Assembly (NCBI GenBank): GCA_964593365.1
Contig: CAZQGQ010000001.1
Coordinates: forward strand, 244,585 to 308,584
Direction of reading: 5' to 3'
Origin: an uncultured Candidatus Saccharibacteria bacterium
GTDB lineage: Bacteria > Patescibacteriota > Minisyncoccia > Phycocordibacterales > Phycocordibacteraceae
DNA length: 64,000 bases
Each line of letters begins with the position of its first letter. The first letter of the stretch is position 1. A program made the position numbers and the translations under genes. The notes under the pieces were generated by a model that did not search any database, was not told the DNA's origin, and saw nothing but the letters and a program-made list of their open reading frames with translations. Below, one piece after another: positions 36,255-63,723 of this stretch.

Positions 36255-36602
36255 ATGGATCATAAACAACTTAGCATAGGCTTCGTAGCGCTCGTAATAG
36301 GGCTAGGCGTGGGATACATGCTTAATACAACCCCCGTGCAGGTTGTTGAGGACGACACTGCCATGCATGGTGAAATGGAAAGCATGACAGGAGGTCTAAA
36401 AGGAAAAGTAAGCGATGATTTTGATAAGGCCTTTCTTGCAGAAATGATTGTGCACCACGAGGGCGCTATAGATATGGCGGAGGCAGCACTTCAAAACGCT
36501 AAGCACGAAGAGATAAAGACTATGGCAAATGCAATCATCTCTGCACAGACATCTGAAATCGTTCAGATGAAGGAGTGGCTGAGCAACTGGTACGGACAAT
36601 AA
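36255..36602 (+). CDS. DUF305 family protein (copper-stress associated four-helix bundle)
   Basis: DFDKAFLAEMIVHHEGAIDMA and a second histidine-containing helix, plus an N-terminal TM. Confidence 0.7.
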   Translation: MDHKQLSIGFVALVIGLGVGYMLNTTPVQVVEDDTAMHGEMESMTGGLKGKVSDDFDKAFLAEMIVHHEGAIDMAEAALQNAKHEEIKTMANAIISAQTSEIVQMKEWLSNWYGQ

Positions 36603-37228: not shown

Positions 37229-37256
37229 GGTTCCAACATCGTCCCAGACAGCCAGC
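37229..37256 (+). repeat. island repeat R1: GGTTCCAACATCGTCCCAGACAGCCAGC
   Basis: Identical to R3 over all 28 nt. It begins at the first base after the TAG stop. Confidence 0.8.
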
Positions 37257-37282
37257 TAATAAGTTTATGCTACAGTCTTGTC

Positions 37283-37828: not shown

Positions 37829-37835
37829 GCAAAAA

Positions 37836-37863
37836 AGTTCCAGCATCGTCCCAGACAGCCAGC
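37836..37863 (+). repeat. island repeat R2: AGTTCCAGCATCGTCCCAGACAGCCAGC
   Basis: 26 of 28 nt identical to R1. It begins 8 nt after the TAA stop and is preceded by an A-run. Confidence 0.8.
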
Positions 37864-37883
37864 AATAAGTTAGAATTGAACCT

Positions 37884-38432
37884 ATGGATTCAAGGATTCT
37901 GAATGTAATAGATCAAGAAGGGAATATTGTTCGTGAAGCTACACGGGAGGAAATACATAAGAACGGTCTTCTGCACGCTGAAGTGCATGTCTTGTTTTAC
38001 ACACCAGATAGGAAAGTCATCTTTCAACATCGTGCAAAAGACAAGGACACTTATCCAGATCTTTTGGATGCGACTGTTGGAGGTCATGTCGAACCTGGCG
38101 ACACTTATGAAGAAACAGCGTTGAAAGAAGCTGGAGAAGAGGTGGGTATTTCTGTAGATCCCAAAAGCCTTATCCCTCTTCGCACAGTTATAACAAAATC
38201 ATATGATGAGGTAACGGGAACCATCAATCATCCGAGGCGCAGTATTTATGCATATCGATACGAGGGTGCGTTAGAGGACTTACGTATCGAAGAAGGGAAA
38301 GCGATTGGGTTTGAGGCCTGGTCTATCGATAAGCTTTTTGCTTTAACAATAGACGAGCAGAAGAAGTTCATTCCACTACTTATTGGAGATATTTACATCG
38401 ATATCTATAAACAAATTCAAGATTTAATATGA
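37884..38432 (+). CDS. NUDIX hydrolase
   Basis: Nudix box GGHVEPGDTYEETALKEAGEEVGI (G-x5-D-x7-KEAxEExGI). Confidence 0.7.
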   Translation: MDSRILNVIDQEGNIVREATREEIHKNGLLHAEVHVLFYTPDRKVIFQHRAKDKDTYPDLLDATVGGHVEPGDTYEETALKEAGEEVGISVDPKSLIPLRTVITKSYDEVTGTINHPRRSIYAYRYEGALEDLRIEEGKAIGFEAWSIDKLFALTIDEQKKFIPLLIGDIYIDIYKQIQDLI

Positions 38433-39178
38433 TGGAAAATGTCTCAATTTCCAATAATAAGGGTCAACAGCTCTCAGCGAATATGTATCCATCAAAGACA
38501 GCAACCCATAAACTTGCCATTCTCTGTCCAGGGTACTTAGACACCAAAGATTACGTGCATCTGGTGCGTCTTGCTGAGCAGCTTACAGGGCGTGGGTATA
38601 CAGTCGCTTCTTTTGATCCAACTGGTACCTGGGGAAGTGAAGGTTCTAATGAGGAGTATTTAACGTCTCAATACCTAGAAGACATTAAGAGTGTTCTCGA
38701 ATACATGCTTAGCCAGGCTCCTTACAGCAGTATTCTTTTAGGTGGCCATAGTCGAGGCGGCCAAGTCGCAATATTATATGCCGCACATGACCCACGTGTG
38801 ACGCAAATTCTAGCGATTATGCCTTCACATGGGCCAGTGGAGGGATCGCGCAGAGAAGAGTGGGAGAAAGAAGGGTTTAAAGACTCGGATAGAGACATTC
38901 CTGGAAGTACTGATCGTAAGTACTTCCATATTCCCTTCAAGCACGTATTAGACCGAGATCAATTTGATGCTCTTGGAGATATAAAGAAAATAAAAGCATC
39001 AATAATCCTTATTGCCGGCGAGCTCGACGACTTAGTCACTCCGGAGGAAGTACGACAGCTCTATGATGCGGCTAATCAGCCCAAGAAATATATGATACTA
39101 GAGGGGATTGGTCACGATTATCGTTTGAATTCAAAGGAAGTGGAAAGAGTGAATATAGCGATTCTTAAGGAGATTTAG
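38429..39178 (+). CDS. alpha/beta hydrolase
   Basis: Nucleophile elbow GGHSRGG, plus the C-terminal GHDYRL catalytic His region. It overlaps the NUDIX gene by 4 nt (ATGA). Confidence 0.7.
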   Translation: MMENVSISNNKGQQLSANMYPSKTATHKLAILCPGYLDTKDYVHLVRLAEQLTGRGYTVASFDPTGTWGSEGSNEEYLTSQYLEDIKSVLEYMLSQAPYSSILLGGHSRGGQVAILYAAHDPRVTQILAIMPSHGPVEGSRREEWEKEGFKDSDRDIPGSTDRKYFHIPFKHVLDRDQFDALGDIKKIKASIILIAGELDDLVTPEEVRQLYDAANQPKKYMILEGIGHDYRLNSKEVERVNIAILKEI

Positions 39179-39185
39179 CAAAAAA

Positions 39186-39213
39186 GGTTCCAACATCGTC
39201 CCAGACAGCCAGC
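39186..39213 (+). repeat. island repeat R3: GGTTCCAACATCGTCCCAGACAGCCAGC
   Basis: Identical to R1. It begins 8 nt after the TAG stop and is preceded by an A-run. Confidence 0.8.
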
Positions 39214-39250
39214 AAAACGAGAATAGATTGGAAATTGGTATACTGAGTCG

Positions 39251-39583
39251 ATGATGGAAGGTTTAAGACAAAAGATCGCACGTACCATGCCGGAAGGGCC
39301 CGACACAAAAGAAGTGCTAGCGCGTGTTGAGGAGATATCTGTTACGCTCCTTTATCCTATAAAAAAAGAAGAGAGAGAAGATGCGCGTGCGAAGCTTCTG
39401 GAAGCTCTTACGACAATGTCGCCTGAGGAACGCGCAAAGACGGCACGAGCGGTAAGCGCCATTGTGGAAACATTAGAGAAGAGCCCGTATAGGAATGTGG
39501 GGTTTAACGGATCTTTGATTCGAAGGCAGTTGGCAGACATAGGGCCAGTAGCAGAAGCTCTAAACGCTTCGAATCAGGAATAA
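39251..39583 (+). CDS. hypothetical 110-aa protein (AT-rich island gene 5)
   Basis: ORF with predicted helices. No recognisable motif. Confidence 0.4.
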   Translation: MMEGLRQKIARTMPEGPDTKEVLARVEEISVTLLYPIKKEEREDARAKLLEALTTMSPEERAKTARAVSAIVETLEKSPYRNVGFNGSLIRRQLADIGPVAEALNASNQE

Positions 39584-39594
39584 AAACCTACCCT

Positions 39595-39622
39595 GGTTCC
39601 AACATCGTCCCAAACAGCCAGA
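39595..39622 (+). repeat. island repeat R4: GGTTCCAACATCGTCCCAAACAGCCAGA
   Basis: 26 of 28 nt identical to R1. It begins 12 nt after the TAA stop. A terminator hairpin follows it. Confidence 0.75.
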
Positions 39623-39631
39623 CGTATAAAA

Positions 39632-39662
39632 TAAAAACACCCGCCGGAAGCGGGTGTTTTTA
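39632..39662. terminator. bidirectional rho-independent terminator (ACACCCGC-CGGAA-GCGGGTGT plus T-run)
   Basis: GC-rich hairpin between the island end and the convergent rpsA gene. A/T runs lie on both sides. Confidence 0.7.
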
Positions 39663-39672
39663 TGTCCAACTC

Positions 39673-40821
39673 TTACTTCTTTGCGTCCTTGCCGAGGAAG
39701 GAGAGCGTCATGCGCTGATCCTTTGGCTCGAAGACCTTGATAACAAACGGGTAAGTCTTACCAAGCTCAAGCACCTCTTTGAGTTCCTGTGGGGAAGCGA
39801 ACTCGCTGATGTGCACCAAGCCGGCAACGCCTTCCTCGATTGAGGCGAGGGCACCGTGCTTGTTGTACTTGATGATGACGCCTGAGATTTCCATACCCTT
39901 CTTGTAACGGTCAGACGCGGTCTTCCAAGGGTTTTCCTTGAGCGCCTTGATCGAAAGGGAAATCTTTCCGTCCTTGATCTCGATCACCTTCACCTCAACC
40001 TTGTCGCTTACCTTGAAGAGGGTGCGAGGATCCTCGACGAGTCCCCAATCAAGTTCAGAGATGTGCACGAGTCCTTCAAGGCCCTGCTCGAGTTTGACGA
40101 AGACGCCAAAGTCGACAGCTCCCGTGACTTCTCCCGTGACAACGTCACCAACCTGGTACTTGTCGATGAGTGAAGTCTTCTCCTCATCCTCTGAGCCAGT
40201 GCGCTCCGAGAAGATAAGCTTCGCTTCTTTTGGCTCTGCAGTGATGATGCGGACCGAAAGCACCTGTCCGACAAGCTTGCCGAGCTCCCCAAGGATCTTG
40301 TCCTTGTCTCCCTCAGGCACGCGCGGGTAGTGCTCCTTTGCAAGCTGGGAAGCAGGCAAGAAGCCCTTGATACCCTGCCACGTGAGGATGAGTCCTCCCT
40401 TGTTGGCTTCCTCGACCATAAGCGAGTACGTGGTCTGTCCGAGGATTGCCTGATCGGCTTCGCTCCAGATAGCAGCCTGGCGAGCCTCTTTCAACGAAAG
40501 CTCGATGTAGCCTTCGATGCCTGAGGGATCGACGACCTTTGCAGAGATAGTGTCTCCCGGGTTTGCCTTGCGGAGGATGTCAGCTGCGTTTAGGTACTCG
40601 CGTCCGTAGATGATACCTGTTCCAAATGGAGGCAGGTCAACATAGAGGCGTCCGCGCGAAAGCGCGATGATGGTTCCTTCGATGAGGTCTCCGGCAGACG
40701 GAGGCGTCATGATCGAATCCACCAGATTTGCCATCGGGTGTCCTTCTTCAAACGAAACAGTTACTGGAATAGGCGACGTCTTCTTCTCGTCCGTTGCGAC
40801 AACGGCAGTATCTTCACTCAT
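39673..40821 (-). CDS. rpsA: 30S ribosomal protein S1 (four S1 domains, short form)
   Basis: Repeated S1 OB-fold modules, for example GDVVTGEVTGAVDFGVFVKLEQGLEGLVHISEL. Confidence 0.8.
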   Translation of the reverse strand: MSEDTAVVATDEKKTSPIPVTVSFEEGHPMANLVDSIMTPPSAGDLIEGTIIALSRGRLYVDLPPFGTGIIYGREYLNAADILRKANPGDTISAKVVDPSGIEGYIELSLKEARQAAIWSEADQAILGQTTYSLMVEEANKGGLILTWQGIKGFLPASQLAKEHYPRVPEGDKDKILGELGKLVGQVLSVRIITAEPKEAKLIFSERTGSEDEEKTSLIDKYQVGDVVTGEVTGAVDFGVFVKLEQGLEGLVHISELDWGLVEDPRTLFKVSDKVEVKVIEIKDGKISLSIKALKENPWKTASDRYKKGMEISGVIIKYNKHGALASIEEGVAGLVHISEFASPQELKEVLELGKTYPFVIKVFEPKDQRMTLSFLGKDAKK

Positions 40822-46787: not shown

Positions 46788-47318
46788 ATGAACTTCTCCG
46801 ATCCGCTCCACAACATCCTTCGCATGGGACTGAAGGAGGGAATGAAGGTTGCTGATCTTGGGACGGGGTCAGGACACTACGCGATTTCGGCAGGACATAT
46901 CGTTGGGCCTACTGGCCGCGTGTACGCCGTTGATATCCAGGAAGATATCCTGACGCGCCTCACTGCGGAAGCTAAGGTGCGCGGCCTTACTAATATAGAG
47001 ACGATCTGGGCTGACTTTGAACACCTCGAAGGAACGACGCTTCGACCGCGCGTCTTGGACGCGGTCGTGCTTTCAAATACGCTATTCCAGCTTGAGAAGA
47101 AAGAAGGCGCGCTCGCTGAAATCAAGCGCATCTTGAAGCCTGGAGGGAAGCTACTCGTGGTTGACTGGATGGAATCCTTCGGAGGTATCGGTCCGCATAA
47201 GGAGCATGTCGTTCCGGAAGCCGAAGCCGAAGCGCTCTTTATCAAGGCAGGCTTCACGAAGCTGAAAGCGTTCCTTGGAGGCCCGTACCATTATTCTCTT
47301 TTGTTTGAAGCACCCTAA
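46788..47318 (+). CDS. class I SAM-dependent methyltransferase
   Basis: Motif I VADLGTGSGHYA, motif post-I VYAVDIQ, motif II/III region ILKPGGKLLVVDW. Confidence 0.75.
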   Translation: MNFSDPLHNILRMGLKEGMKVADLGTGSGHYAISAGHIVGPTGRVYAVDIQEDILTRLTAEAKVRGLTNIETIWADFEHLEGTTLRPRVLDAVVLSNTLFQLEKKEGALAEIKRILKPGGKLLVVDWMESFGGIGPHKEHVVPEAEAEALFIKAGFTKLKAFLGGPYHYSLLFEAP

Positions 47319-47337
47319 GCGTATTAGAATACGAACT

Positions 47338-48645
47338 ATGAAGAACCTTCGCCCTTTCCAGATCGGTGCCATCGCAATTGCTGTCGTGCTCGCGCTTGGC
47401 GGCCTCTACACCTTCACTACCTTCACCGGTTTTGGAAACGACAAGGAGGCGATCGGCACGGTCACGATTTGGGGAACGCTGCCGCAGGCCGCGCTTGATG
47501 CAGGACTCGATGAGCTCTCGCTCACGAGCAGCGAGAAGTATGCGAACGTCTCCTATATTGAACGACCCGCCGCATCCTTTAGTTCTGACCTTGCAAACGC
47601 AATCGCATCAGGGAGCGGACCTGACCTCATCATCATTTCGCAGGAAGACTTGCTTACCGAGCGAGGGAAGCTGAACGTCATTCCTTTTGATTCGATCCCG
47701 CAGCGCACCTATACCAGCGCCTTTCTTCCGATTTTCCAGCTCTATCTGACCGAAGAGGGAACCTACGGCGTTCCGCTTGTCGTTGACCCGCTTGTCCTCT
47801 ATTACAACCGCGCGATCCTTTCTTCAGTCGGAGTGACGCGTGCTCCGTCTACCTGGGATGCCGTCTCAGGCCTTGCTATGGGTGTCACCGGCCGCGACGA
47901 CCGGGGAACGGTGACGCGAAGCCTCATCTCGCTTGGTGAATACCAAAACGTCTCAAACGCCCGAGCCATCCTCTCGCTTTTGTTCTTGCAGGCAGGCTCC
48001 ACTATTACCGAGCAGCTTCCCGTTGGCGTTCGTTCGACCCTTGTAAACGGAGGAAGCTCGAGCTTTGGTGCAACGCCCGCGCAATCCGCACTAAGCTTCT
48101 ATGCGCAGTTCGCAGATCCGGCTAAGACCGTCTATTCCTGGAACCGCTCGCTCCCTGAGTCCCGGCAAGCATTCTTATCGGGAGACCTGGTCCTTTACCC
48201 AGGCTTTGCTTCCGAAGAGCCGTACCTGACTTCGGCAAACCCGAACCTTTCCTATGACATGGCGCCCATGCCCCAGCCCTCAACAAATCCGGTTCGCATC
48301 GGCTACGGACTTGCATACGCATTTGCGGTCCCAAAAGCTTCTGCAAATCCGCTCGGAGCGCTTGCGCTCTCGCTTGAGCTTACGGCGCCCGCCCCCATGA
48401 CCGTGATAGCAGAGTCAGTTGCCATGGCTCCTGCCAGGCAGAACCTGCTAACGCCTCCTGCAGACAATCTCTACGCTCCGATTTACTTCAGCGAAGCCTT
48501 GATTGCCACAGGATGGTTATCCCCTGCGCCCTATGTCACGGACGCCGTCTTCTCCGCTATGATTAGCGACATAATCACCGGACGATTGGATGCTGAAGGA
48601 GCAGTCCAGAAAGGTGATCAATCCTTGAATGCCGTACTTCGCTAA
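47338..48645 (+). CDS. membrane-anchored extracellular solute-binding-like protein
   Basis: N-terminal TM (IGAIAIAVVLALGGL), then a roughly 400-aa periplasmic-binding-protein-like domain (..GPDLIIISQEDLLT..VPLVVDPLVLYYN..). The start was moved to ATG 47338. Confidence 0.5.
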   Translation: MKNLRPFQIGAIAIAVVLALGGLYTFTTFTGFGNDKEAIGTVTIWGTLPQAALDAGLDELSLTSSEKYANVSYIERPAASFSSDLANAIASGSGPDLIIISQEDLLTERGKLNVIPFDSIPQRTYTSAFLPIFQLYLTEEGTYGVPLVVDPLVLYYNRAILSSVGVTRAPSTWDAVSGLAMGVTGRDDRGTVTRSLISLGEYQNVSNARAILSLLFLQAGSTITEQLPVGVRSTLVNGGSSSFGATPAQSALSFYAQFADPAKTVYSWNRSLPESRQAFLSGDLVLYPGFASEEPYLTSANPNLSYDMAPMPQPSTNPVRIGYGLAYAFAVPKASANPLGALALSLELTAPAPMTVIAESVAMAPARQNLLTPPADNLYAPIYFSEALIATGWLSPAPYVTDAVFSAMISDIITGRLDAEGAVQKGDQSLNAVLR

Positions 48646-49357
48646 GACTATGATCTCTCCCCGACACCTCTTCGTCTCTCTTCTTCTTGGCGTTTCTTTG
48701 CTGCTTCCGTTTGGGGCAGCAGCGCAGTATCCAAACTGCAACCCGATGACTTCAACCCCCTGCAACATGCCGGAGGGTCAGGCAGACTTCTGCGCGACCG
48801 CTAGCACGGTGAGCGATCAGAAGATGGCCTGCGAAAACATTGGCGGGGGACAGGTACTAACCTCCGCAGCGTCTACCGCAGGCGGCATGAGCTGTGCTGC
48901 GAACCGAACCCCCTGCCAAGTCGATGGCACGAACTTCTGCGCGAACGGCGGGGCATCGGCATGTAATGCGGCGAACGGCGAAGTCATCACGAGCGCTAAT
49001 CCAAACCCCGATCCGGCTCCTACTCCAGGCACCCCTACCGATGATGCGACCACAACATCTACTTCAACTGATGCAGGATCGACAGCGGTCGGAGGCGGAA
49101 CGCTCCTCAATCCACTTGGCGTCGATTCGCTTGAAGACCTTCTGACTGCCGTGCTTGGAGCGGTAGTGCAGATCGGTTCTATCTTCCTCGTCTTGGCACT
49201 CGTCTGGGTCGGCTTCCTCTTCGTCTTTGCGCAAGGGAACGAGGAGAAGATCAAGACCGCACGTCAGGCCCTCTTCTGGACCATCATCGGCGGCTTGGTA
49301 CTTCTTGGCGCGCAGGCGATCTCGATGGTAATCCAGGCAACCGCTGAAGCGCTATGA
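48629..49357 (+). CDS. pilin-like two-TM family member P1: signal peptide, N-terminal Cys-rich ectodomain, Pro/Thr linker, C-terminal two-helix core
   Basis: Signal peptide LLLGVSLLLPFGAAAQ. There are 11 Cys in C-x-x-x-C-like spacing and a PNPDPAPTPGTPTDDATTTST linker. The core LVLALVWVGFLFVFAQGNEEKIKTARQALFWTIIGGLVLLGAQAI is shared with P2-P7. Confidence 0.65.
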   Translation: MPYFAKTMISPRHLFVSLLLGVSLLLPFGAAAQYPNCNPMTSTPCNMPEGQADFCATASTVSDQKMACENIGGGQVLTSAASTAGGMSCAANRTPCQVDGTNFCANGGASACNAANGEVITSANPNPDPAPTPGTPTDDATTTSTSTDAGSTAVGGGTLLNPLGVDSLEDLLTAVLGAVVQIGSIFLVLALVWVGFLFVFAQGNEEKIKTARQALFWTIIGGLVLLGAQAISMVIQATAEAL

Positions 49358-49602
49358 CCTTCAAGCAATTCGTCGAAGGGACCATTGTGCAGGCAGTGGA
49401 TTCATCTATCATTCCGCTCATGTATGCGCTTGCGTTCTTGTTCTTCATTTATGGCGTAGCCCAGACGATGTTCTCGTATAACGAAGAGAAGCGTCAGGAA
49501 GGGAAGAAGTTCGCGCTCTGGGGCATCATCGGGCTCGTGGTCCTCTTTAGCGTCTGGGGAGTCGTGAAGCTCTTTTTGACCGTGCTTACGAACGGTTTAT
49601 AA
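49354..49602 (+). CDS. pilin-like two-TM family member P2 (core only)
   Basis: IIPLMYALAFLFFIYGV...NEEKRQEGKKFALWGIIGLVVLFSVWGVV. It overlaps P1 by 4 nt (ATGA). Confidence 0.65.
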   Translation: MTFKQFVEGTIVQAVDSSIIPLMYALAFLFFIYGVAQTMFSYNEEKRQEGKKFALWGIIGLVVLFSVWGVVKLFLTVLTNGL

Positions 49603-49641
49603 CCGGTTTGCGAAGCATCTACTCACTGATACCTTATACCC

Positions 49642-50163
49642 ATGGACATCTTCCAATTCATGCTGCACCTGACGGTCTTCATCGACCGCTTCCTGATTCC
49701 ATTTATATTCGCAATAGCGTTCCTCGTGTTTGTCTGGGGCGTCTACATGTATTTCATCCAGGGCGGGGGAAACGACGAGAAGCGCAAAGAGGGCCGCACC
49801 TTCATCCTTTACGGCATCGGAGGGTTCGTCATCATGATCGCCATCTGGGGCATCGTGAACGTGCTTATCAGCTCGCTTGGCTTTGATACGAAAGGACGTC
49901 CGCCTCTTCCGTCCTTCGGAACGCCGACAGGGACAGTAAACAGCGCCACTACCACTAATAACAATGTGTTTAATACCGGTAACGGAGTCGCAGATTGTCG
50001 CGTAGCTCCTAATCAGTGCTATTCGGGCTATACCTGTACGGCATCGTCCGGATATACGCTTTGCGAGCCGGTCGTCACCGGAGGAGGTAATCAGACCACC
50101 TGTACACCTGAATGTACTAACGGGACGACCTGTGTTGCTGGCACTTGTCAGTCGAGCATCTAG
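49642..50163 (+). CDS. pilin-like two-TM family member P3: core plus Asn/Thr linker plus C-terminal Cys-rich domain
   Basis: LIPFIFAIAFLVFVWGV...GGGNDEKRKEGRTFILYGIGGFVIMIAIWGIVN, then ...CRVAPNQCYSGYTCTASSGYTLCEPV...CTPECTNGTTCVAGTCQSSI. Confidence 0.65.
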   Translation: MDIFQFMLHLTVFIDRFLIPFIFAIAFLVFVWGVYMYFIQGGGNDEKRKEGRTFILYGIGGFVIMIAIWGIVNVLISSLGFDTKGRPPLPSFGTPTGTVNSATTTNNNVFNTGNGVADCRVAPNQCYSGYTCTASSGYTLCEPVVTGGGNQTTCTPECTNGTTCVAGTCQSSI

Positions 50164-50254
50164 TTAGTTTGTTTTCCACACTGCACCCTGCAGTCTATTG
50201 ACGCCCTAAACTGGCGGTCTATGCTGTAGGCATACCTTACCCATATAATCTCTC

Positions 50255-50605
50255 ATGAAAAAACTCGCTATTCTCGTCGCTACGTGGACCCTCCCGATTG
50301 TTGCGCTTGCGCAGGTCCGGGACGTCTTTCAGGCTGCTACGCTCATCACCCAGATCATTAACGGCGTTCTCGTTCCGCTCGTGTTCGCGATCGCCTTTAT
50401 CGTCTTCATCTGGGGCGTTTTCACGTACTTCATCCTTTCGGGAGGAAATGCTGAGAAGCGCGAAGAGGGACAGAAACTCATGCTCTACGGCATCGTTGGT
50501 TTCTTCGTGATGGTCGCTGTGTGGGGACTCGTTAACATCCTCCTCGGTACCTTCCAGTTGAACAACAACATCCCGAGCCTTCCTGGCGCTCCAGGACCTC
50601 GATAA
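50255..50605 (+). CDS. pilin-like two-TM family member P4 (signal peptide plus core)
   Basis: Signal peptide MKKLAILVATWTLPIVALAQV, then LVPLVFAIAFIVFIWGV...GGNAEKREEGQKLMLYGIVGFFVMVAVWGLVN. A TATAAT lies 10 nt upstream of the ATG. Confidence 0.65.
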   Translation: MKKLAILVATWTLPIVALAQVRDVFQAATLITQIINGVLVPLVFAIAFIVFIWGVFTYFILSGGNAEKREEGQKLMLYGIVGFFVMVAVWGLVNILLGTFQLNNNIPSLPGAPGPR

Positions 50606-50620
50606 CTCACAGGAGTTTAG

Positions 50621-50648
50621 AAAAGACCCGGGCAACCGGGTCTTTTTC
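50621..50648 (+). terminator. rho-independent terminator after P4 (GACCCGG-GCAA-CCGGGTC plus TTTTT)
   Basis: A 7-bp GC stem with a GNRA-like loop and a 5-T run separates P4 from P5. Confidence 0.7.
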
Positions 50649-50664
50649 GTTATAGAATGCAGAT

Positions 50665-50901
50665 ATGACTTTCGGCGGACTCTTCTCCATGCTCGTGTAC
50701 CAAGGACTTATCCCGCTCGCCTTCACGATCCTCTTCATCACCTTCCTGTGGGGCCTCTTCACCTTTGTCGTTGCAGGAGGACCAGATGAGGAAGCGAAGG
50801 AGAAAGGGAAGGCGCTTCTCTTCTACGCCCTCCTTGGGTTTCTCGCTCTCATCGTCTTTTGGGGAGTCGCTAACATAGTGCGCGACCTGTTCTCCGCCTA
50901 A
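50665..50901 (+). CDS. pilin-like two-TM family member P5 (core only)
   Basis: LIPLAFTILFITFLWGL...GGPDEEAKEKGKALLFYALLGFLALIVFWGVAN. Confidence 0.6.
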   Translation: MTFGGLFSMLVYQGLIPLAFTILFITFLWGLFTFVVAGGPDEEAKEKGKALLFYALLGFLALIVFWGVANIVRDLFSA

Positions 50902-50923
50902 CGCTTCGGTATATACTTCACGT

Positions 50924-51178
50924 ATGGAACCCTTCAATCAATTCATCGTAACGGTCCAAGAGCAGATTCTTTCACCGCTTCTGACCCTGATCGCACTTGC
51001 AGCCTTCGTCGTCTTTGTCTGGGGCGTCGTTGACTTCATCCGTGGCGCAGATAACGAGGAGCGTCGCAAATCAGGGCAGCAACACATGATCTGGGGCATT
51101 ATCGGCCTCGTGATCATCTTTGGCGCAAACGCCATCATCACCATGCTGCAGGCGACGCTGACAAACACATTCAACTAA
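50924..51178 (+). CDS. pilin-like two-TM family member P6 (core only)
   Basis: LSPLLTLIALAAFVVFVWGV...GADNEERRKSGQQHMIWGIIGLVIIFGANAI. Confidence 0.6.
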   Translation: MEPFNQFIVTVQEQILSPLLTLIALAAFVVFVWGVVDFIRGADNEERRKSGQQHMIWGIIGLVIIFGANAIITMLQATLTNTFN

Positions 51179-51183
51179 GAGGG

Positions 51184-51265
51184 TGCTGGAGAGAGGACTC
51201 GAACCTCCATGGGTTGCCCCGCTACGTCCTAAGCGTAGTGCGTATACCAATTCCGCCACTCCAGC
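51184..51265 (-). tRNA. tRNA-Leu (anticodon TAG), long variable arm
   Basis: Reverse complement reads GCTGGAG-TG-GCGGAATTGGTATACGC-A-CTACG-CTTAGGA-CGTAG-variable arm CGGGGCAACCCATGG-AGGTTCGAGTCCTCT-CTCCAGC-A. Confidence 0.8.
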
Positions 51266-51328
51266 GTTCGTACACAATACCTGCGAAGCCCTTTCATATC
51301 AAATTATTTCTTGTTAAGATGCTCGCTA

Positions 51329-51405
51329 TCCGCCTATAGCTCAGCTGGTAGAGCAGATCCCTCTTAAGGATAAGGTCCCTGGTTCGAGCCCAGGTAGGCG
51401 GACCA
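51329..51405 (+). tRNA. tRNA-Lys (anticodon CTT), CCA encoded
   Basis: CCGCCTA-TA-GCTCAGCTGGTAGAGC-A-GATCC-CTCTTAA-GGATA-AGGTC-CCTGGTTCGAGCCCAGG-TAGGCGG-A-CCA. Position 1 is C, paired with G72. Confidence 0.75.
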
Positions 51406-51480
51406 CGATAGAAAAAGCAGAGCCCATGCGAAGATCGTTTCGCATGGGACTCGCTGTAGTGTAGTTCGGACGATGTAGTC

Positions 51481-51870
51481 TTACACCGCCTGTGACTCGT
51501 AGAGCCACCGTGCCAGGTTTGGAAGATAGGTCCTGACAGCGTGGTCGCAGATGGAGAAGATCCGTTCAGAGTCCGCTTCAAGATTGCTGAGGCTGCTCGC
51601 GTCTTCCACCGGGACTCCCCGATGCAGATGCACGCCCTCGTACCCGTCCCCGCAGGCCGTGCTGAGCACGAATCCCTTAGGAACAAGTAACAATCCTTGG
51701 CAGGACAGCGCCAAACGATTCTTTCCAGGTAGCTGCGGCCGTACGACAGTGTAGAAATAGTCGCCGACTTCGATCGTGTTTCCGGTCTCGCTGCAGATAA
51801 GCGACATAACCGTTACCCCTCTGTTCATTCCAACCAAGCAGGGGCGCTTGGGGTAGCCCCATATGACCAC
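51481..51870 (-). CDS. hypothetical protein (about 108-129 aa) between tRNA genes
   Basis: The ORF sits between tRNA-Lys and the tRNA-Leu/Cys pair. It contains GVHLHRGVPVED. No family call. The start is uncertain. Confidence 0.35.
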   Translation of the reverse strand: MVIWGYPKRPCLVGMNRGVTVMSLICSETGNTIEVGDYFYTVVRPQLPGKNRLALSCQGLLLVPKGFVLSTACGDGYEGVHLHRGVPVEDASSLSNLEADSERIFSICDHAVRTYLPNLARWLYESQAV

Positions 51871-51899
51871 GCCGGAGAAAAGAAATCAAAACTTATCAG

Positions 51900-51985
51900 T
51901 GCCGGGGGTGGGAATCGAACCCACATGAGCGGTTAAGCTCTGGGGATTTTAAGTCCCCTATGTCTACCAGTTTCATCACCCCGGC
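51900..51985 (-). tRNA. tRNA-Leu (anticodon TAA), long variable arm
   Basis: Reverse complement reads GCCGGGG-TG-ATGAAACTGGTAGACAT-A-GGGGA-CTTAAAA-TCCCC-variable arm AGAGCTTAACCGCTCAT-GTGGGTTCGATTCCCAC-CCCCGGC-A. Confidence 0.8.
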
Positions 51986-51995
51986 AGTGCACTTG

Positions 51996-52067
51996 AGGCC
52001 CGAGCGGGAATCGCACCCGCGCATCGAGGATTTGCAGTCCCCTGCGTTACTACTTCGCCATCGGGCC
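51996..52067 (-). tRNA. tRNA-Cys (anticodon GCA), U73 discriminator
   Basis: Reverse complement reads GGCCCGA-TG-GCGAAGTAGTAACGC-A-GGGGA-CTGCAAA-TCCTC-GATGC-GCGGGTGCGATTCCCGC-TCGGGCC-T. Confidence 0.8.
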
Positions 52068-55132: not shown

Positions 55133-55858
55133 ATGGATATCGAAGAACTATCAAAGACCCAGCTTCTTCTCCTCACTATTCTCGTGAGCTTCGTGACTTC
55201 AATTGCAACGGGTGTGCTTACCGTGTCCTTGCTCGACCAGGCGCCTACGACCGTCACGCAGACAGTGAACCGCATTGTCGATCACACCATCGAAACAGTG
55301 ACGACGCAGGTGCCGTCGATTGTCGGGAACCCAGAACCGGACGGGCCAACAACCGAAGAACTGCTGGTGAACTCGGTCGCCGCAACATCTGCACGCAAGG
55401 TCACGATCTATCGCGATAGTTCTAAGCGCGATCTGCTTGGTACGGGAGTGTATCTACCGGCTCAGCGAGCAGTGGTCACCACCGCAACTGGCATGCCGAC
55501 TCGTCCTGTTATCGTCTTTGCAAACGGAGAATCAATTGCCGCGTTTCGTAAGGGAGAGGATGGCAGCCTCTGGGCATTTACCTTCGCTGCTGAAACGGTG
55601 CTCCCCGAGGCTCCAGCAGGGCGCCTCGTTCCTTCTGCAGACTTGAAGCAGGGACAAACGGTTATCGCTCTTACCGCCGAAGGGAGCGCAACCACCGGGA
55701 TCATCTCTAAGATCGATGGCACGACCATCACTACAGACATCCCCCAGGCTCCGGTAGGCGCCGGTGTGGTAAACCTAGCCGGAGATATCGTCGGAGTGAG
55801 CCTGGGAGGCGGAACCTTGATCGGAAGCGATCGTATCGCAGCGCTCATCGCGTCGTAA
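55133..55858 (+). CDS. membrane-anchored trypsin-like domain protein lacking the catalytic serine (pseudo-protease?)
   Basis: N-terminal TM. The C-terminal GAGVVNLAGDIVGVSLGG resembles the S1/HtrA GNSGGPLVNxxGEVVGIN block, but Ser is replaced (PVGAG). Confidence 0.4.
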   Translation: MDIEELSKTQLLLLTILVSFVTSIATGVLTVSLLDQAPTTVTQTVNRIVDHTIETVTTQVPSIVGNPEPDGPTTEELLVNSVAATSARKVTIYRDSSKRDLLGTGVYLPAQRAVVTTATGMPTRPVIVFANGESIAAFRKGEDGSLWAFTFAAETVLPEAPAGRLVPSADLKQGQTVIALTAEGSATTGIISKIDGTTITTDIPQAPVGAGVVNLAGDIVGVSLGGGTLIGSDRIAALIAS

Positions 55859-59155: not shown

Positions 59156-59683
59156 CTATGGGACGAGATTCGAACGTTTGGTCCACTGGATTAACTCTGA
59201 GAATATCTGAGGATTAGCCCCCACAAACTCATCCGGCACCTCAACAAGTTCTTTTTCGAGCTTACTCCAATGTACCCAACGTACTGCAGCGACCTCTTCT
59301 TCTTGAGGTCTCAGTGCTTCGAGAGAGATATCAATCTTAGCCATGAACCATTGTCGCATTCGCCTATTGCTAGGCTTACCAACAATTTCCTTGTTTCCAA
59401 GCTCTAATTGCTCGGATCGTACATCGAGGTTTAATTCTTCCTTAGCCTCTTTCTGAACATTGCTTTCATAGCTTTCGTTCTCATTTACAGTTCCTGCAGC
59501 CGCAGGACCCCATTTACCAGGAGCATGTTTTTTAGTCAGTGCTCGTTGGGCAAGCAAAACTTCTCCGTTTGAATTTGAGACCCACAAAGCGGAGGATCGA
59601 TGAATTTCTCCCTCCTCCCACTTATCGCGCTCGCAGATGCGGACGAAATTATCATTCTCGTCAACAATAATAACCTTTTCCAT
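59156..59683 (-). CDS. NUDIX hydrolase (degenerate Nudix box)
   Basis: GPAAAGTVNENESYESNVQKEAKEELNL approximates G-x5-E-x7-REUxEExGU. AT-richer than its neighbours. Confidence 0.6.
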   Translation of the reverse strand: MEKVIIVDENDNFVRICERDKWEEGEIHRSSALWVSNSNGEVLLAQRALTKKHAPGKWGPAAAGTVNENESYESNVQKEAKEELNLDVRSEQLELGNKEIVGKPSNRRMRQWFMAKIDISLEALRPQEEEVAAVRWVHWSKLEKELVEVPDEFVGANPQIFSELIQWTKRSNLVP

Positions 59684-59711
59684 ACAGGGAATTTACCACA
59701 CGGTTCGAAGG

Positions 59712-59782
59712 CGGGCCCACGAGGAATCGAACCTCGGCCGACGGTTTTGGAGACCGACGTTCTACCATTAAACTATGGGCCC
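59712..59782 (-). tRNA. tRNA-Trp (anticodon CCA)
   Basis: Reverse complement reads GGGCCCA-TA-GTTTAATGGTAGAAC-G-TCGGT-CTCCAAA-ACCGT-CGGC-CGAGGTTCGATTCCTCG-TGGGCCC-G. Confidence 0.75.
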
Positions 59783-59857
59783 GTACGGCAAACCTTAGCA
59801 GAGAAGCAGGCTGTGGGCAAAACGCCTTTTTGATTCTAGATACCTTATACTAGGCGC

Positions 59858-60808
59858 ATGCGAACGCTACGCGTCTTTCTCCCGTTTTTACTTGTCGGTA
59901 TCCTAGCACTTGCTCCTCTTGGGGCATCTGCCGGATTGACCCAAATCATCCCGACCGGCTGCTACTGCGAAGGCGGTGCTCCTGATTGGGGATGCGCTCT
60001 CCAAGTAGTGCAGAACGTCATGAACCTCGCCATCGCGATCGGATTCATGATATTCGTGCTCGCGCTTGTCTATGCCGGACTTACGTTCATCGCAAGCCCG
60101 ATCAGCGCGAAGGGGCGCGAACTCGGGAAAACGATTCTCATGAACTCAGTAGTCGGGCTCGTGATCATGCTCTGCGCATGGCTTCTCGTCGACTTTGTCA
60201 TGAAGGCGCTCTACAACGAAGACGCAAGCGCGGCAGGTATCGAGCGACTTGGTCCATGGAACAGCATTCTCGGCGCAGGTGGACGTGCGTGCCTCTTGCA
60301 GCGCGACCCACCAGCAGGTCTTCCAGGCACCAGTAGCGTTGATGCAACGAGTGGAATCACTGGTCAGACAGGACAAGCAAGCCAGATCAAAGCTTTTTAT
60401 GAAGCGGCGCAAAGCGCAGGGCTTAGTGCTGTCTATGAAGTTCGAACCAGTGGGCGAAAGCAGGAACTCGTGAGCGCTGGTGTTCCTGCTGCCGCAATTA
60501 CAGCAGTTTCCTATATAACAGGAGAGCACTTCTCAGTGTATTCAGGCGGAGGCTGCGGAGGACAAGCGTCTTCTCAGCTGAAGACAAACCCGTCTTGCAC
60601 CAACTGCCAGCAGATCACAGGACCTACCTGCAAGAGTTCTAGCAGCTGCACCATTACTGCGTCAGTAAATAGTGCACTCAACTCAATCCCGCAGACAAAC
60701 GTAGAGATAGGCAGCTGGCGCGTGACAGAAGCCTTTCCTCCAACGACACAGGCGCACAATTGCAGCTGCCACTACACCGGTACTTGCGTCGACGTCGGGT
60801 TCTTCTAA
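59858..60808 (+). CDS. pilin-like two-TM family member P7: signal peptide, core, large C-terminal Cys-rich ectodomain
   Basis: Signal peptide, then ...CALQVVQNVMNLAIAIGFMIFVLALVYAGLTFIASPISAKGRELGKTILMNSVVGLVIMLCAWLLVDF. The C-terminal 200 aa carries about 12 Cys (CGGQ, CTNCQ, CKSSSSC, CSCHYTGTC). Confidence 0.6.
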   Translation: MRTLRVFLPFLLVGILALAPLGASAGLTQIIPTGCYCEGGAPDWGCALQVVQNVMNLAIAIGFMIFVLALVYAGLTFIASPISAKGRELGKTILMNSVVGLVIMLCAWLLVDFVMKALYNEDASAAGIERLGPWNSILGAGGRACLLQRDPPAGLPGTSSVDATSGITGQTGQASQIKAFYEAAQSAGLSAVYEVRTSGRKQELVSAGVPAAAITAVSYITGEHFSVYSGGGCGGQASSQLKTNPSCTNCQQITGPTCKSSSSCTITASVNSALNSIPQTNVEIGSWRVTEAFPPTTQAHNCSCHYTGTCVDVGFF

Positions 60809-61635
60809 GACGTTTCCTTAAGTTTCCTGATCCACGCTTCCTGACGCCTTGCGTACTGGAAAAGCTTTGCTGAAAGTGCATCAAGAAGCGAAAATTCCTC
60901 GCGTTCTCCTCGCAGATATTCGCCAACAATTCGGTACTCAAGTCCAAGCTCGTTCAAGCGAGCGTCTCCGACGTACTCTCGCACCCGTTTCACTTCGTTA
61001 ATAAGTCCTTTGGCGAGAGTCTCGGTTAGACGTGCGACTATTCGTTCTCGTATCTCGTCTCTTGTAGGAGTAAGCACGATCCACTCAACTGCATAAGGGG
61101 GCTTCTCACCTCGTTCCGGCACACTCCCATGCTGCTTGATGACCTCGAGCGCCCGTACCAATCTCCTTCGGTTGTTTGGATCTAGTTCGCCTGCGCGTCG
61201 CGGGTCAACACGTTCAATCTCCGTAAACAGTTCTTCATCTGAAAGCTCCTCAAGATCATCTCGAAGCTCAAGATCCATAGGAGTTTCAAGCGGCAGCCCG
61301 TTTATAAGGGCGTCGAAATAGAAGTGACTGCCACCCGCAAGGATAGGCACCTTCCCGCGCGCACTTATCTCCTGTATCAGGCGCTTAGCGTCAACGACAA
61401 AATCCCCTGCGCTGTAGCTTTCTTTGGGGTCACGGATATCAATCAGGTGATGAGGAACACCTTGCATCTCTTCTGTGTTGATCTTCTCAGTGCCAATATC
61501 AAGCATGCGGTACACCTGCCGGGAGTCGACAGAGATGACTTCGCCATCGCGTTCCTTAGCAAGCGCGATCGCCCGGGAAGACTTCCCAGAGGCCGTAGGG
61601 CCGATCACGCAGATGATGGGGAGTTTTCTGTCCAT
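60805..61635 (-). CDS. miaA: tRNA dimethylallyltransferase MiaA
   Basis: P-loop VIGPTASGKS, ISVDSRQVYR and DIGTEK blocks. Confidence 0.9.
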   Translation of the reverse strand: MDRKLPIICVIGPTASGKSSRAIALAKERDGEVISVDSRQVYRMLDIGTEKINTEEMQGVPHHLIDIRDPKESYSAGDFVVDAKRLIQEISARGKVPILAGGSHFYFDALINGLPLETPMDLELRDDLEELSDEELFTEIERVDPRRAGELDPNNRRRLVRALEVIKQHGSVPERGEKPPYAVEWIVLTPTRDEIRERIVARLTETLAKGLINEVKRVREYVGDARLNELGLEYRIVGEYLRGEREEFSLLDALSAKLFQYARRQEAWIRKLKETS

Positions 61636-61687
61636 GCGTGGGATGCTATCATGCGCTCATCATCTTTGTCAGGATAAGCTTATATCT

Positions 61688-62353
61688 ATGAGTACAAACG
61701 GAAAAAAGAGCAACTACTGTGAGCACTGTGGGGATTTCCACGATCCGGTGCAGGAGTATGTGTCGCAGGTCAAAGTCGGGGAAATTGTTCCTGACTTTCA
61801 GTTCGAGGCGTACCAAAACGATGAGACCAAGACCTTGAAGTTCTCGGATTATCGAGGGAAGTGGATCGTCGTCGTATTTTATCCAGCAGACTTCACCTTC
61901 ATCTGCCCGACCGAGCTTGAGGAAATGGCCAAGCTCTATCCGCAATTCAAGGAAATCAACACGGAAGTGATTTCATTCTCAACCGATACGGTCTTCACCC
62001 ATAAGGCCTGGCATGACACCTCGCCTGCGATAAAGCAGATCGGCTACCCGATGGGAGCGGATCCTGCTGGAAAGATTGCACATGCTTTCGGTGTCCTCAT
62101 TGAGGGAGACGGCATCGAGATGGTAGAAGACGAAGGGCTTTCGATGCGCGGAACATTCATCATCGATCCAGCCGGCATCCTCCGAGCGATGGAGATAAAT
62201 CACAACAGCGTCGGGCGAACCGCGCGTGAGACCTTCCGTAAAGTGCAGGCAGCTCAGTTTGTCGAGAAGAACGAAGGCCAGGTATGTCCGGCTTCATGGG
62301 AACCGGGAGACGATACGCTTGAACCGGGGATGGGCTTGGTAGGGAAGATATAA
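61688..62353 (+). CDS. peroxiredoxin (AhpC/Prx1-type) with N-terminal CxxC extension
   Basis: Peroxidatic Cys block FYPADFTFICPTE and the FSTDTVFTHKAW thioredoxin fold. The first 20 aa contain YCEHCGDFHDP. The start was trimmed from the ORF-track 61475 to ATG 61688, because upstream of it the frame overlaps miaA on the opposite strand. Confidence 0.8.
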   Translation: MSTNGKKSNYCEHCGDFHDPVQEYVSQVKVGEIVPDFQFEAYQNDETKTLKFSDYRGKWIVVVFYPADFTFICPTELEEMAKLYPQFKEINTEVISFSTDTVFTHKAWHDTSPAIKQIGYPMGADPAGKIAHAFGVLIEGDGIEMVEDEGLSMRGTFIIDPAGILRAMEINHNSVGRTARETFRKVQAAQFVEKNEGQVCPASWEPGDDTLEPGMGLVGKI

Positions 62354-62393
62354 AAAGAGTGCGACGGTCGTAGGGACCGCCGCGTTCTTTAGC

Positions 62394-62667: not shown

Positions 62668-63612
62668 TTAGCGGTTGCGTCGGAGCGTTGTCTCGAGGGT
62701 CTTTCGAATATCCGTTGGAAGGGATGCGAGCGTGAGGCGGGTGCGTTCGGCAATGTCTCCTGAGTATAGGCTAGAGAAAGGTATGCCTACGTCAGCGCGC
62801 ACCATCCGATCGATATAGGGAAGTGAAAGTGCGCGAAGGCCTTTAAGCTTCTTCACCTTCTCGTTGCTCAGCGTTGCCGCAATGCCAACGACGCTACCTG
62901 CGTACGTGACGGGTGCGCCAGAGATCCCAGATTGCCCTGCTTTAGACGGAGCGAGGAATAGCACGTCAGAATACGGGCGATCGAAAGAACGGATCTCAGA
63001 GATGGTAGTCGTGGCGGTAAGCGTTGCGAGCTTCTTGTCTACTTCTTTGTAATCAAGATTTTCTGCCGGATATCCCGTGATTGCGACTGTCTCTCCTGCC
63101 GTAAGGCTGTTAACGGTTTCGAGGCTCGCAAGCGGGACAAAGGGGAAGTGCGCAGGGAGATCTCCCTTCTTTGCTTTAGTGACCTGGAGAAGCGCGAAGT
63201 CTCGTTGGCTTGAGCCCGAGCCTTCACTCTTGTTTGCAACTGAACTGATATAGGAATCTAGCCACTTCGGAGAGATGTAGATAAGCGAAGCGACGTACTG
63301 GTCGCGCGCAGGCGAGCCCGTGCGCACGCTGCAATTTACTTTGCTTTTACCGGTGCCTTCGGTAAGCAGGTGGTATTGGCCCACATGGGCATTGGTGAGA
63401 ATAACGCCCTTATCGTTAATGAATACTCCGGACCCAGTCGTCAGATAGCTTGCACCTCCAAGTTTGACTCGGCAAATAATGTTAACGGTTGCTTCTGCAA
63501 TGGGGTCTTTGGGAGCTACCGCCTTTGTTTTGCTTGCTGCGTGGACCGGAACCGCGGTCGTAATGACAGCAACAAAAAGCAGAGCCGATGCAATGCGAAG
63601 AAAGATATTCAT
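62668..63612 (-). CDS. secreted trypsin-like (S1 family) serine protease
   Basis: Signal peptide. His block ILTNAHVGQ. Ser block GQSGISGAPV (a variant of GDSGGP). The start was moved to MNIFLR. Confidence 0.65.
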   Translation of the reverse strand: MNIFLRIASALLFVAVITTAVPVHAASKTKAVAPKDPIAEATVNIICRVKLGGASYLTTGSGVFINDKGVILTNAHVGQYHLLTEGTGKSKVNCSVRTGSPARDQYVASLIYISPKWLDSYISSVANKSEGSGSSQRDFALLQVTKAKKGDLPAHFPFVPLASLETVNSLTAGETVAITGYPAENLDYKEVDKKLATLTATTTISEIRSFDRPYSDVLFLAPSKAGQSGISGAPVTYAGSVVGIAATLSNEKVKKLKGLRALSLPYIDRMVRADVGIPFSSLYSGDIAERTRLTLASLPTDIRKTLETTLRRNR

Positions 63613-63641
63613 GCGAGCGAGTATAGCATCACTCGTAACGG

Positions 63642-63723
63642 GTGCCGGGGGAGAGACTCGAACTCTCAAGCCTTGCGGCGGTGGGTTTTGAATCCACTGC
63701 GGTTACCAATTTCGCCACCCCGG
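63642..63723 (-). tRNA. tRNA-Leu (anticodon CAA), long variable arm
   Basis: Reverse complement reads GCCGGGG-TG-GCGAAATTGGTAACCGC-A-GTGGA-TTCAAAA-CCCAC-variable arm CGCCGCAAGGCTTGAGAG-TTCGAGTCTCTC-CCCCGGC-A. Confidence 0.75.

Follow-up and report, generated by a model that had tools for sequence, protein, structure and literature searches.

A pilin-like anchor gene convergent on miaA in a Candidatus Saccharibacteria genome carries a circularly permuted domain, probably of the LAS/Hedgehog type

The locus and its pilin-like anchor

Patescibacteria are ultrasmall bacteria that contribute much of the known bacterial diversity and have a lifestyle of attachment to other bacteria. In a 64,000-nucleotide stretch from an uncultured Candidatus Saccharibacteria bacterium (assembly GCA_964593365.1, contig CAZQGQ010000001.1, positions 244,585 to 308,584), which is referred to as a whole as the window and to which all coordinates below refer, a gene at 59858..60808 on the + strand encodes a VirB2-like, pilin-type anchor followed by a C-terminal domain that is probably related to zinc peptidases of the LAS fold. 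The open reading frame (ORF) begins with ATG and runs uninterrupted for 316 amino acids (aa) to its stop codon. It is preceded by a tRNA-Trp (CCA) gene detected by ARAGORN at 59710..59782 on the − strand, and it converges on miaA (60805..61635, − strand), which encodes tRNA isopentenyltransferase and was recognized from its ORF, from IPPT/IPT matches (Pfam PF01715/PF01745) and from synteny, the stop codons of the two genes overlapping by 4 nucleotides (60805-60808). A scan for sigma-70 promoters upstream of the gene found nothing. A tandem array of six paralogues of the T4SS_pilin family (T4SS, type IV secretion system) lies at 48629..51178 on the + strand and ends 8.7 kb upstream. A preliminary description of the window had placed the gene between tRNA-Trp and miaA about 9 kb from the array, with a signal peptide, a CYC..GCA segment and a two-helix core; the ORF proved exact and all of these elements are present, the quoted core falling at aa 55-113.

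The anchor module can be divided into four consecutive parts, all on the + strand. The protein starts with MRTLRVFLPFLLVGILALAPLGASA|G, which is organized like a Sec signal peptide into n-, h- and c-regions; the signal peptide is predicted for aa 1-25 (59858..59932; ...GASA|G), with a hydrophobic segment at about aa 6-24, an invariant A25 and an A-x-A context conserved in homologues, after which cleavage would be expected. The N-terminal segment that follows, predicted to be extracytoplasmic (59933..60019; CYCEGGAPDWGC), contains C35, C37 and C46 within the motif C.C..SAPDWGC, which is nearly invariant across the anchor subfamily independently of the cargo; the stretch at aa 35-47 reads CYCEGGAPDWGCA, and its cysteines are conserved in homologues. 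The two-helix pilin core (aa 50-114; 60005..60199), delimited by its Pfam match, by a hidden Markov model (HMM) of the array members and by hydropathy, consists of a first transmembrane helix at about aa 55-79, a basic loop, SPISAKGRELGKT, at aa 80-92 with three basic residues, and a second transmembrane helix at about aa 93-115, the hydropathy profile showing three hydrophobic segments at about aa 6-24, 57-75 and 93-115. The module ends with a juxtamembrane motif delimited by conservation, KALYN...GPWNSIL...C145 (60203..60292), in which K116, P133, W134, N135 and C145 are invariant among homologues with unrelated cargo.

Judged from its sequence, the anchor belongs to the VirB2-like T4SS_pilin family, and this membership stands under several comparisons. 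The protein scores 33.3 bits against Pfam PF18895 (gathering cut-off 26.6) over aa 50-114, covering profile positions 8-71 of 71; array members P1-P4 and P6 are also above the cut-off, while P5 falls just under it (23.1 vs 26.6). An HMM built from P1-P6 only gives 33-37 bits, while 1000 shuffled versions of the core score 0.6 on average and 10.3 at most, so that the proposed alignment with the array members goes beyond generic hydrophobicity. Reciprocally, an HMM of the anchor subfamily matches P1-P6 at E-values of 1e-4 to 8e-11, and with the anchor HMM the two-helix family in the window comprises exactly seven members, of which the present gene is the seventh and dispersed one, as had been suggested. 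A 75-aa ORF at 63464-63691 (+) gives a weak match to the anchor HMM (E 2.5e-4); it overlaps an opposite-strand trypsin-like gene and a tRNA-Leu gene, and the match is therefore most likely spurious.

Both the anchor family PF18895 and its tandem arrays in Patescibacteria are already known. A survey describes VirB2-like arrays as widespread in Patescibacteria, counting 441 of them with 2-11 genes each in 383 assemblies, has assigned the T4SS of this group to the monoderm (MPF-FATA) type and has noted that most of its genomes with VirB2 lack VirB1 (PMC12102498). In Southlakia epibionticum, a Saccharibacterium and the one species tested, the T4SS and the pilin array are essential for epibiotic growth (PMC10633639; PMC12857230). 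The protein resembles VirB2/TrbC-like pilins (PF18895; PMC12102498, PMC10633639) in its signal peptide and its two-helix hairpin with a short basic loop, and it is a paralogue of the array in the window. Unlike these pilins, which have a small mature subunit of about 70-120 aa, it is 316 aa long, three to four times the pilin length, adds the motifs C.C..SAPDWGC, LVDFVMKALYN and GPWN..L....C together with a 145-aa enzyme-type domain, and does not lie beside virB4 or other T4SS genes.

The array itself consists of P1 (48629-49357), P2 (49354-49602), P3 (49642-50163), P4 (50255-50605), P5 (50665-50901) and P6 (50924-51178), all on the + strand. P1 has an 8-Cys module N-terminal to the core and then a Thr/Pro-rich linker, and P3 has an 8-Cys module C-terminal to the core with a weak likeness to Stig1-type Cys repeats (E 0.28). 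Directly upstream, an ORF at 47275-48645 that overlaps the start of P1 encodes a membrane-anchored solute-binding protein (SBP_bac_1), which is not a T4SS component, and a cluster of tRNA genes (51182-52067) lies directly 3' of the array.

The ectodomain family and the order of its halves

The C-terminal part of the protein had been described as a 200-aa Cys-rich ectodomain with about 12 cysteines. An ectodomain rich in cysteine is indeed present, but the count has to be revised, the whole protein containing 13 cysteines (35, 37, 46, 106, 145, 233, 247, 250, 258, 264, 302, 304 and 310), of which nine lie past the second helix; nor is it a generic Cys-rich module, since it is a conserved, permuted domain that is probably of the LAS/Hedgehog-like zinc-peptidase type. 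Homology of the Cys-rich parts of P1 and P3 to this domain was considered and rejected, as the alignment z-scores are −0.2, 1.7 and −0.05 and the HMM scores are negative. The Cys-rich parts of P1, P3 and the present protein are thus distinct and not detectably homologous to one another, which upholds the earlier view that the membrane core is paired with different extracellular cargoes.

The ectodomain alone matches no family in Pfam or NCBIfam, and it is nevertheless a member of a large family. A profile search retrieved 984 cluster representatives with E-values up to 1e-3; at the stricter limit of 1e-10 there were 720. Of 162 family members examined, 150 carry a pilin-like anchor, the remaining 12 being mostly truncated fragments, plus a few with a Met start and divergent N-termini. 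Eight full-length relatives share the whole protein at 45-52% identity, and about twenty others combine this anchor with these motifs arranged in another order. A generic Cys-rich stalk without enzyme ancestry, comparable to the Cys-rich parts of P1 and P3, would account for the nine cysteines in the C-terminal 200 aa and for the lack of a Pfam match; it would not account for the size and conservation of the family and its invariant His, Asp and Glu, for a confidently predicted alpha/beta fold, for the matches of common-order relatives to LAS structures or for the absence of homology to P1 and P3. Just four of the eight domain cysteines are widely conserved, namely C247 and C250 (a CxxC pair), C304 and C310, whereas C233, C258, C264 and C302 are gained and lost together among the closest relatives, a co-variation that suggests extra disulfides. 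The stalk explanation is therefore considered very improbable.

Two conserved halves make up the domain, and their order in the present protein is the reverse of that in most relatives. In the common order, half A (CxxC...C...C - W.VTEAFPPT..H...CH..GTC.D..F) is followed by half B (..I..F..AA...GLRAVYEV...R..L...GV......ITG.HFSVY), with which the protein ends. In the present protein, half B comes first (aa 172-229; 60371..60544, + strand; 87.6 bits with the partB HMM), contains E194 and, in the HFSVY strand, H224, and aligns with the C-terminal halves of common-order homologues. Half A (aa 238-316; 60569..60805, + strand; 96.8 bits with the partA HMM) comes last and contains the CxxC...C...C hairpin, the WRVTEAFPPT strand, H300, C304 and H305-x6-D312. 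Between the two HMM matches, the Gly-rich connector SGGGCGGQ (60545..60568, + strand) joins the old C-terminus to the old N-terminus and is modelled with high confidence, with blocks at about 95 in the predicted local distance difference test (pLDDT). The same arrangement of half B, connector and half A up to the protein end is found in P0002-6, P0008, P0051 and P0052.

The protein is a natural circular permutant of the ectodomain family, as several lines of evidence demonstrate. Separate HMMs for the two halves, applied to 184 proteins, found 146 in A-B order, 16 in B-A order and 22 with other cargo. When common-order proteins are split, each half aligns to the opposite end of the permuted protein at 41-52% identity. 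Aligned to a doubled common-order unit, the permuted protein runs contiguously across the junction with scores of 208-253, whereas a single unit is aligned over only half its length (129-155; shuffles, mean 29, maximum 45). AlphaFold2 models of the present protein (pLDDT 93.1; predicted template-modelling score, pTM, 0.87) and of the common-order domain of P0037 (88.5; 0.84) have secondary-structure strings that are cyclic rotations of each other, and common-order forms occupy the same syntenic position as the permuted one. Since the source is a metagenome-assembled contig, swapped halves could in principle reflect misassembly or a frameshifted fusion, and nothing more specific speaks for such an artefact. 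The identical protein is carried by 17 contigs from several samples and sources (JGI, NCBI, ENA and Logan), the B-A order spans sixteen distinct 50%-identity clusters (the present protein and 15 others), and the reading frame is uninterrupted, which together make an assembly or annotation error hardly credible.

A rough neighbour-joining tree of the re-ordered halves places 12 of the 16 B-A proteins in one pure clade and all 16 inside a 28-leaf clade, a pattern consistent with a permutation that arose once or a few times. Duplication intermediates of the form A-B-A or B-A-B were found in none of the 184 proteins, the lone candidate with three stretches, P0134, being plain A-B. In the linker preceding half B, a possible relic of the "VDA" motif was considered and dismissed, as the same "VD" occurs in P0007, whose cargo is unrelated. 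The 4-nucleotide overlap with the stop codon of miaA is kept in orthologues (L001, L004 and L006), whether half A or half B forms the end of the domain.

Relation to Hedgehog domains and LAS peptidases

The C-terminal 145 aa probably form a zinc-peptidase-type domain of the LAS fold, with the N-terminal domains of Hedgehog proteins as the nearest solved relatives, an assignment that draws on predicted models and family profiles. When the model of a common-order member was searched with Foldseek, the first 36 matches were Hedgehog N-domain chains (Shh, Ihh, Dhh and fly Hh), with E-values of about 2e-3, probability 1.0 and template-modelling (TM) scores of 0.45-0.57, and the next were LdcB (4jid), VanXYc (4oak) and MepA (1tzp/1u10). 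Profile searches with hmmsearch against all PDB sequences point in the same direction: the A3 profile (32 rows) reached Hedgehog at a best E-value of 0.04, and the A5 profile (54 diverse rows) retrieved 16 Hedgehog sequences, with Shh chains at 0.0015 and Ihh at up to 0.07, the sole non-Hedgehog sequence in each list being a designed protein at about 1. Comparison with human ShhN by hhalign gave probabilities of 57.6-76.8% and E-values of 1e-4 to 2e-5 over 71 columns. Half A aligns with Shh, and the Shh motif AGFDWVY falls within an alignment to the family pattern WRVTEAFPPT..H...CHxxGTCVDxxF...AGLRAVY. The molecular identity of the protein is held with high confidence.

The residues expected of such a domain are strongly conserved. 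Counted over the 162 family members in the numbering of the present protein, E194, H224, H300 and D312 are found in 162/162, E291, C304 and C310 in 161/162, and H305 in 156/162. In Shh, the zinc ligands are H141, D148 and H183 and the catalytic residue is E177 (PMC6027127; Roelink 2018). The alignments pair H305 with H141, D312 with D148, H224 with H183 (HFSV vs HCSV) and H300 with H135; H224 also takes the place of the VanY HW motif in homologue alignments, and the six residues between His and Asp in H305-YTGTCV-D312 lie within the H-x(3-6)-D rule of DD-peptidases.

With the Hedgehog N-domain the family shares the motifs RVTE(G/A)(W/F), H(x5-6)H-x2-G-x-(A/C)-V-D, AG(F/L)..VY and H(C/F)SV, as well as putative counterparts of Shh H135, H141, D148, E177 and H183. 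It differs in its low identity (about 14% in structural alignments), in lacking the acidic residues of the Ca2+ site, in the reduction of H-x-H to a single His, in an insertion of about 25 aa (helix and strand) between the Glu strand and the last His and in an added CxxC hairpin, and the halves of the present protein are, in addition, permuted. With the LAS enzymes of MEROPS clan MD (M15B/C VanY, LdcB and VanXYc; M74 MepA) it has in common a putative zinc-site pattern of H-x6-D plus a distal His and a predicted extracytoplasmic location, and genuine VanY domains take the place of this domain on the same anchor and at the same locus in other genomes. In contrast to these enzymes, SxHxxGxAxD becomes CHxxGTCxD with two conserved cysteines, and the present protein has a permuted order and matches no M15 family in Pfam or NCBIfam. 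The usual LAS motif order, with H-x6-D before the distal His, is not found in it, as H224 precedes H305-x6-D312. For PF02557 (VanY) and other M15 families, the present protein and the common-order members gave no match, true VanY being restricted to the variants P0013 and P0027; an initial identification as a truncated VanY/M15B domain without the last His was rejected once the HFSVY strand was found upstream. The ectodomain family is unannotated; it is probably a new family of the LAS fold, and it is not a member of HH_signal.

The pseudo-active site of Shh has long been debated, and the family could by analogy be a non-catalytic, Hedgehog-like binding module, a pseudo-enzyme that serves as an adhesin or ligand for a host glycan or peptide on the membrane or pilus. 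Its closest solved relatives are signalling ligands and not proven enzymes, its H-x-H is incomplete, and the extra disulfide-rich hairpin could serve binding. Yet residues of the Shh/LAS catalytic set are invariant or nearly so in 162 diverse members, which is not expected of a mere binder, and the alternative cargoes at the same position are recognizable hydrolases (VanY, SLT and M15_4), so that this explanation appears improbable.

Cargo exchange at the miaA position and the possible function

In related genomes the gene has positional orthologues, with miaA as the conserved right-hand border of the position. The shared order consists of the pilin array, RbfA, IF2, a NifS-like gene, a 238-aa protein, ClpB, L33, a variable small gene (NUDIX or other) and the fusion gene, followed by convergent miaA, usually AhpC and a trypsin-like gene, and then ParB, RelA and TopA. 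This order is common to the present genome, to the permuted P0003 and to the common-order P0011 and P0018, with the exception that the P0018 loci miss miaA and AhpC and have ParB directly after the fusion gene; in L006 and L008 the same pilin array is also present, with a similar spacing to the fusion gene. In the window, the ORF in the place of the 238-aa protein ("P238"; 55133-55858, 241 aa) has an N-terminal hydrophobic segment and no Pfam family, and almost every related genome keeps it in this place, flanked by the NifS-like gene and ClpB.

The ClpB-miaA position was surveyed in one genome per species at 48 loci (L010-L057), 47 of which include miaA; by their labels all but one are Patescibacteria, mostly Paceibacterota/Parcubacteria with many Saccharibacteria, the exception being a metagenome-assembled genome labelled Bacillota. 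An anchor-plus-cargo gene converges on miaA in 46/47, and two such genes are present in 35. With cargo classes drawn by regular expressions, which is a crude sorting, the distal gene of the pair is SLT-like in 29/35 and the miaA-proximal gene is LAS-type in 38/46, comprising the Hedgehog-like A-B kind (7), VanY (10), CHYGG..AVDFG..HxHVS (11) and HxxGYKID..HWDI (10), while a few proximal genes carry CHAP/NlpC-like domains. VanY, SLT/SLT_3 and Peptidase_M15_4 all occur as cargoes on the same anchor, and PF18896 (SLT_3, lysozyme-like) matches such cargoes in three scanned relatives. The present genome has only the peptidase gene at the miaA position, with no SLT partner there. The preliminary description was right that the gene is separate from the array, but "dispersed" understates its situation, which is a conserved position convergent on miaA that holds anchor-plus-hydrolase genes in Paceibacteria-type genomes.

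The cargo at this position is an exchangeable cassette (about aa 153-316; 60313..60805, + strand) with a sharp left boundary just past the GPWN..C motif. Compared with L058, a close relative with the same synteny, the DNA is 74% identical up to 60312 (about aa 152), unrelated over 60313-60818 and again 72% identical from 60819 (window segments 59156-60312 and 60819-62375 vs L058 1420-2584 and 3090-4645), and the cargo of L058 is of the HxxGYKID..HWDI type on a 75%-identical anchor. Between the present protein and P0007 the anchor is 75% identical, though the cargo differs. Spacers may lie between anchor and enzyme, such as fibronectin type III in P0018 (L008 10001-11530) and thrombospondin type 3 repeats in P0014; these inserted modules act like spacers and would hold the enzyme further from the membrane.

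Two kinds of known systems offer points of comparison. Polymorphic toxins (PMC3482391) likewise combine a conserved N-terminal module with a sharp recombination boundary, here 60312/60313 relative to L058, and with unrelated C-terminal enzymatic domains at one locus; they differ in that the present locus has no downstream immunity gene and no spare cassettes, and every cargo is a wall hydrolase. The peptidoglycan hydrolases that belong to conjugation systems of Gram-positive bacteria (VirB1-like PrgK, TraG of pIP501 and CwlT) share an N-terminal membrane anchor attached to a wall-hydrolase domain and combine glycan-cutting with peptide-cutting, which is split here over two neighbouring genes in most genomes; in contrast to them, the anchor here is a pilin homologue and not a single helix, the domain is LAS-type and not CHAP/NlpC, and the gene lies outside a T4SS operon.

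Elsewhere in the window, a region at about 36000-40000 has a guanine-cytosine content of 0.45 against about 0.54 in the rest and may have been horizontally acquired; it encodes DUF305, a 217-aa protein without a family, a histidine phosphatase, a NUDIX hydrolase and an alpha/beta hydrolase. Twelve tRNA genes, several in small clusters, are distributed over 7157-63724 of the 64-kb window.

The composite explanation that best fits these observations is that the protein is probably a tethered cell-wall-cutting enzyme, with a probability of roughly 0.6. Following Sec export and removal of the leader, the VirB2-like hairpin would reside in the membrane, its short basic loop facing the cytoplasm and its two ends exposed on the outside as in VirB2, a topology with which the basic character of the loop is consistent, and C35/C37/C46 and C145 would probably staple the outside ends together. 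The domain would then be built from its first half (helix, AVYE194V strand and H224FSVY) and its last half (CxxC hairpin, WRVTE291A and H300...C-H305-YTGTC-V-D312), Zn2+ would be bound by H305, D312 and H224, and E194 would activate water with the assistance of H300, which aligns with Shh H135. The enzyme may thereby cut a peptide bond in the stem peptides or cross-links of peptidoglycan at the cell surface, as one of a conserved set of wall hydrolases with pilin anchors in Patescibacteria of the Paceibacteria type, within which it would be the peptidase, and the wall breaching may be linked to a VirB2-like pilin system. Peptidase activity on peptidoglycan is predicted from sequence as reasonably probable. 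A pilus- or host-directed role, at somewhat less than even odds, remains tentative, although the conservation of the anchor beyond the need for tethering, its homology to the array and the rapid turnover of cargo argue for a role in a pilin system or at a host interface. As for the wall that would be cut, a rough division gives the host wall at the epibiont-host interface just under an even chance, regards the cell's own wall, opened for pilus or T4SS assembly, as a distinctly weaker candidate and ordinary turnover as weaker again.

Several observations weigh against this explanation and its underlying assignments. The model of the permuted protein itself found nothing below E=1 in Foldseek searches of PDB and BFVD; this is expected, because the aligner is sequential and the order is permuted, and it means that the LAS assignment of this protein rests on homology to its common-order relatives. 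The similarity to Hedgehog in sequence is marginal: PF01085 (HH_signal) gave no match to the protein in native or de-permuted form, two homologues reached E-values of 0.01-0.04 at 14 bits vs a cut-off of 22.1, and the de-permuted sequence alone retrieves neither Hedgehog nor M15 from PDB sequences or Pfam, whereas the family profiles do. E194 lies on the strand of Shh E177 (WVYYE177) but is one residue out of register in profile alignments, and the H-x-H of DD-peptidases is not kept, only its second His being present (G-E-H224-F-S), a feature shared with VanX/VanY-type enzymes, which likewise lack the first His. At the locus, no T4SS machinery (VirB4, VirB6 etc.) was found among the 18 window ORFs scanned against Pfam, a set that includes most of those of at least 250 aa and in which all are housekeeping-type. 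No immunity-like gene follows the cassette, the downstream gene being convergent miaA.

Such housekeeping neighbours fit equally well with an ordinary autolysin, in which the hairpin would be a mere tether and the LAS domain would trim the cell's own peptidoglycan in growth or division in the manner of LdcB, VanY-type carboxypeptidases and MepA. The structural neighbours LdcB, VanXYc and MepA are indeed wall-maintenance enzymes, the setting among core genes (ClpB, miaA, AhpC and ParB) is conserved in position across the lineage, no T4SS genes accompany it in the scanned set, and the pairing with an SLT-type gene, seen in most genomes, is reminiscent of ordinary autolysin sets. On the other hand, the peptidase types that close relatives have at this locus are unrelated, with a sharp break at about aa 152, and the position holds at least four cargo classes across genomes, a turnover that is unusual for a housekeeping enzyme. 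The anchor, moreover, is homologous to the pilin array and is conserved, as the comparison with P0007 illustrates, far beyond the need of a passive tether. A housekeeping autolysin is accordingly regarded as unlikely, and a tethered wall-cutting enzyme with possible ties to the pilin system is preferred.

A more far-reaching version of the preferred explanation regards the anchor as a trafficking or display module, in which exchangeable wall hydrolases (a lytic transglycosylase and a LAS peptidase) would be loaded on VirB2-like subunits and shown on, or delivered via, the T4SS pilus, thus opening the host wall. This version is speculative and is considered doubtful. If it were true, cargo swapping would reflect adaptation to the wall chemistry of the host, and epibiotic Patescibacteria would have a concrete enzymatic payload for their "essential but function-unknown" pilin system, together with a source of the VirB1-like activity that seems to be missing from most of these genomes.

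In the libraries and papers searched, no prior description was found of a Hedgehog-like LAS domain family on this anchor or in Patescibacteria, of circularly permuted LAS/M15 domains or of permutation between positional orthologues, or of a conserved position beside miaA at which a glycosidase is paired with a peptidase and cassettes are exchanged. The present observations link a pilin fold with a conserved set of predicted wall-cutting enzymes at a fixed chromosomal position, offering testable candidates for how Patescibacteria breach their own wall or that of the host. The previously unannotated family, which comprises about a thousand sequence clusters, probably extends the Hedgehog/DD-peptidase group into the candidate phyla radiation, and within it positional orthologues differ by a clean natural circular permutation, which can be used to study how permutations originate and how far the LAS active site tolerates rewiring.

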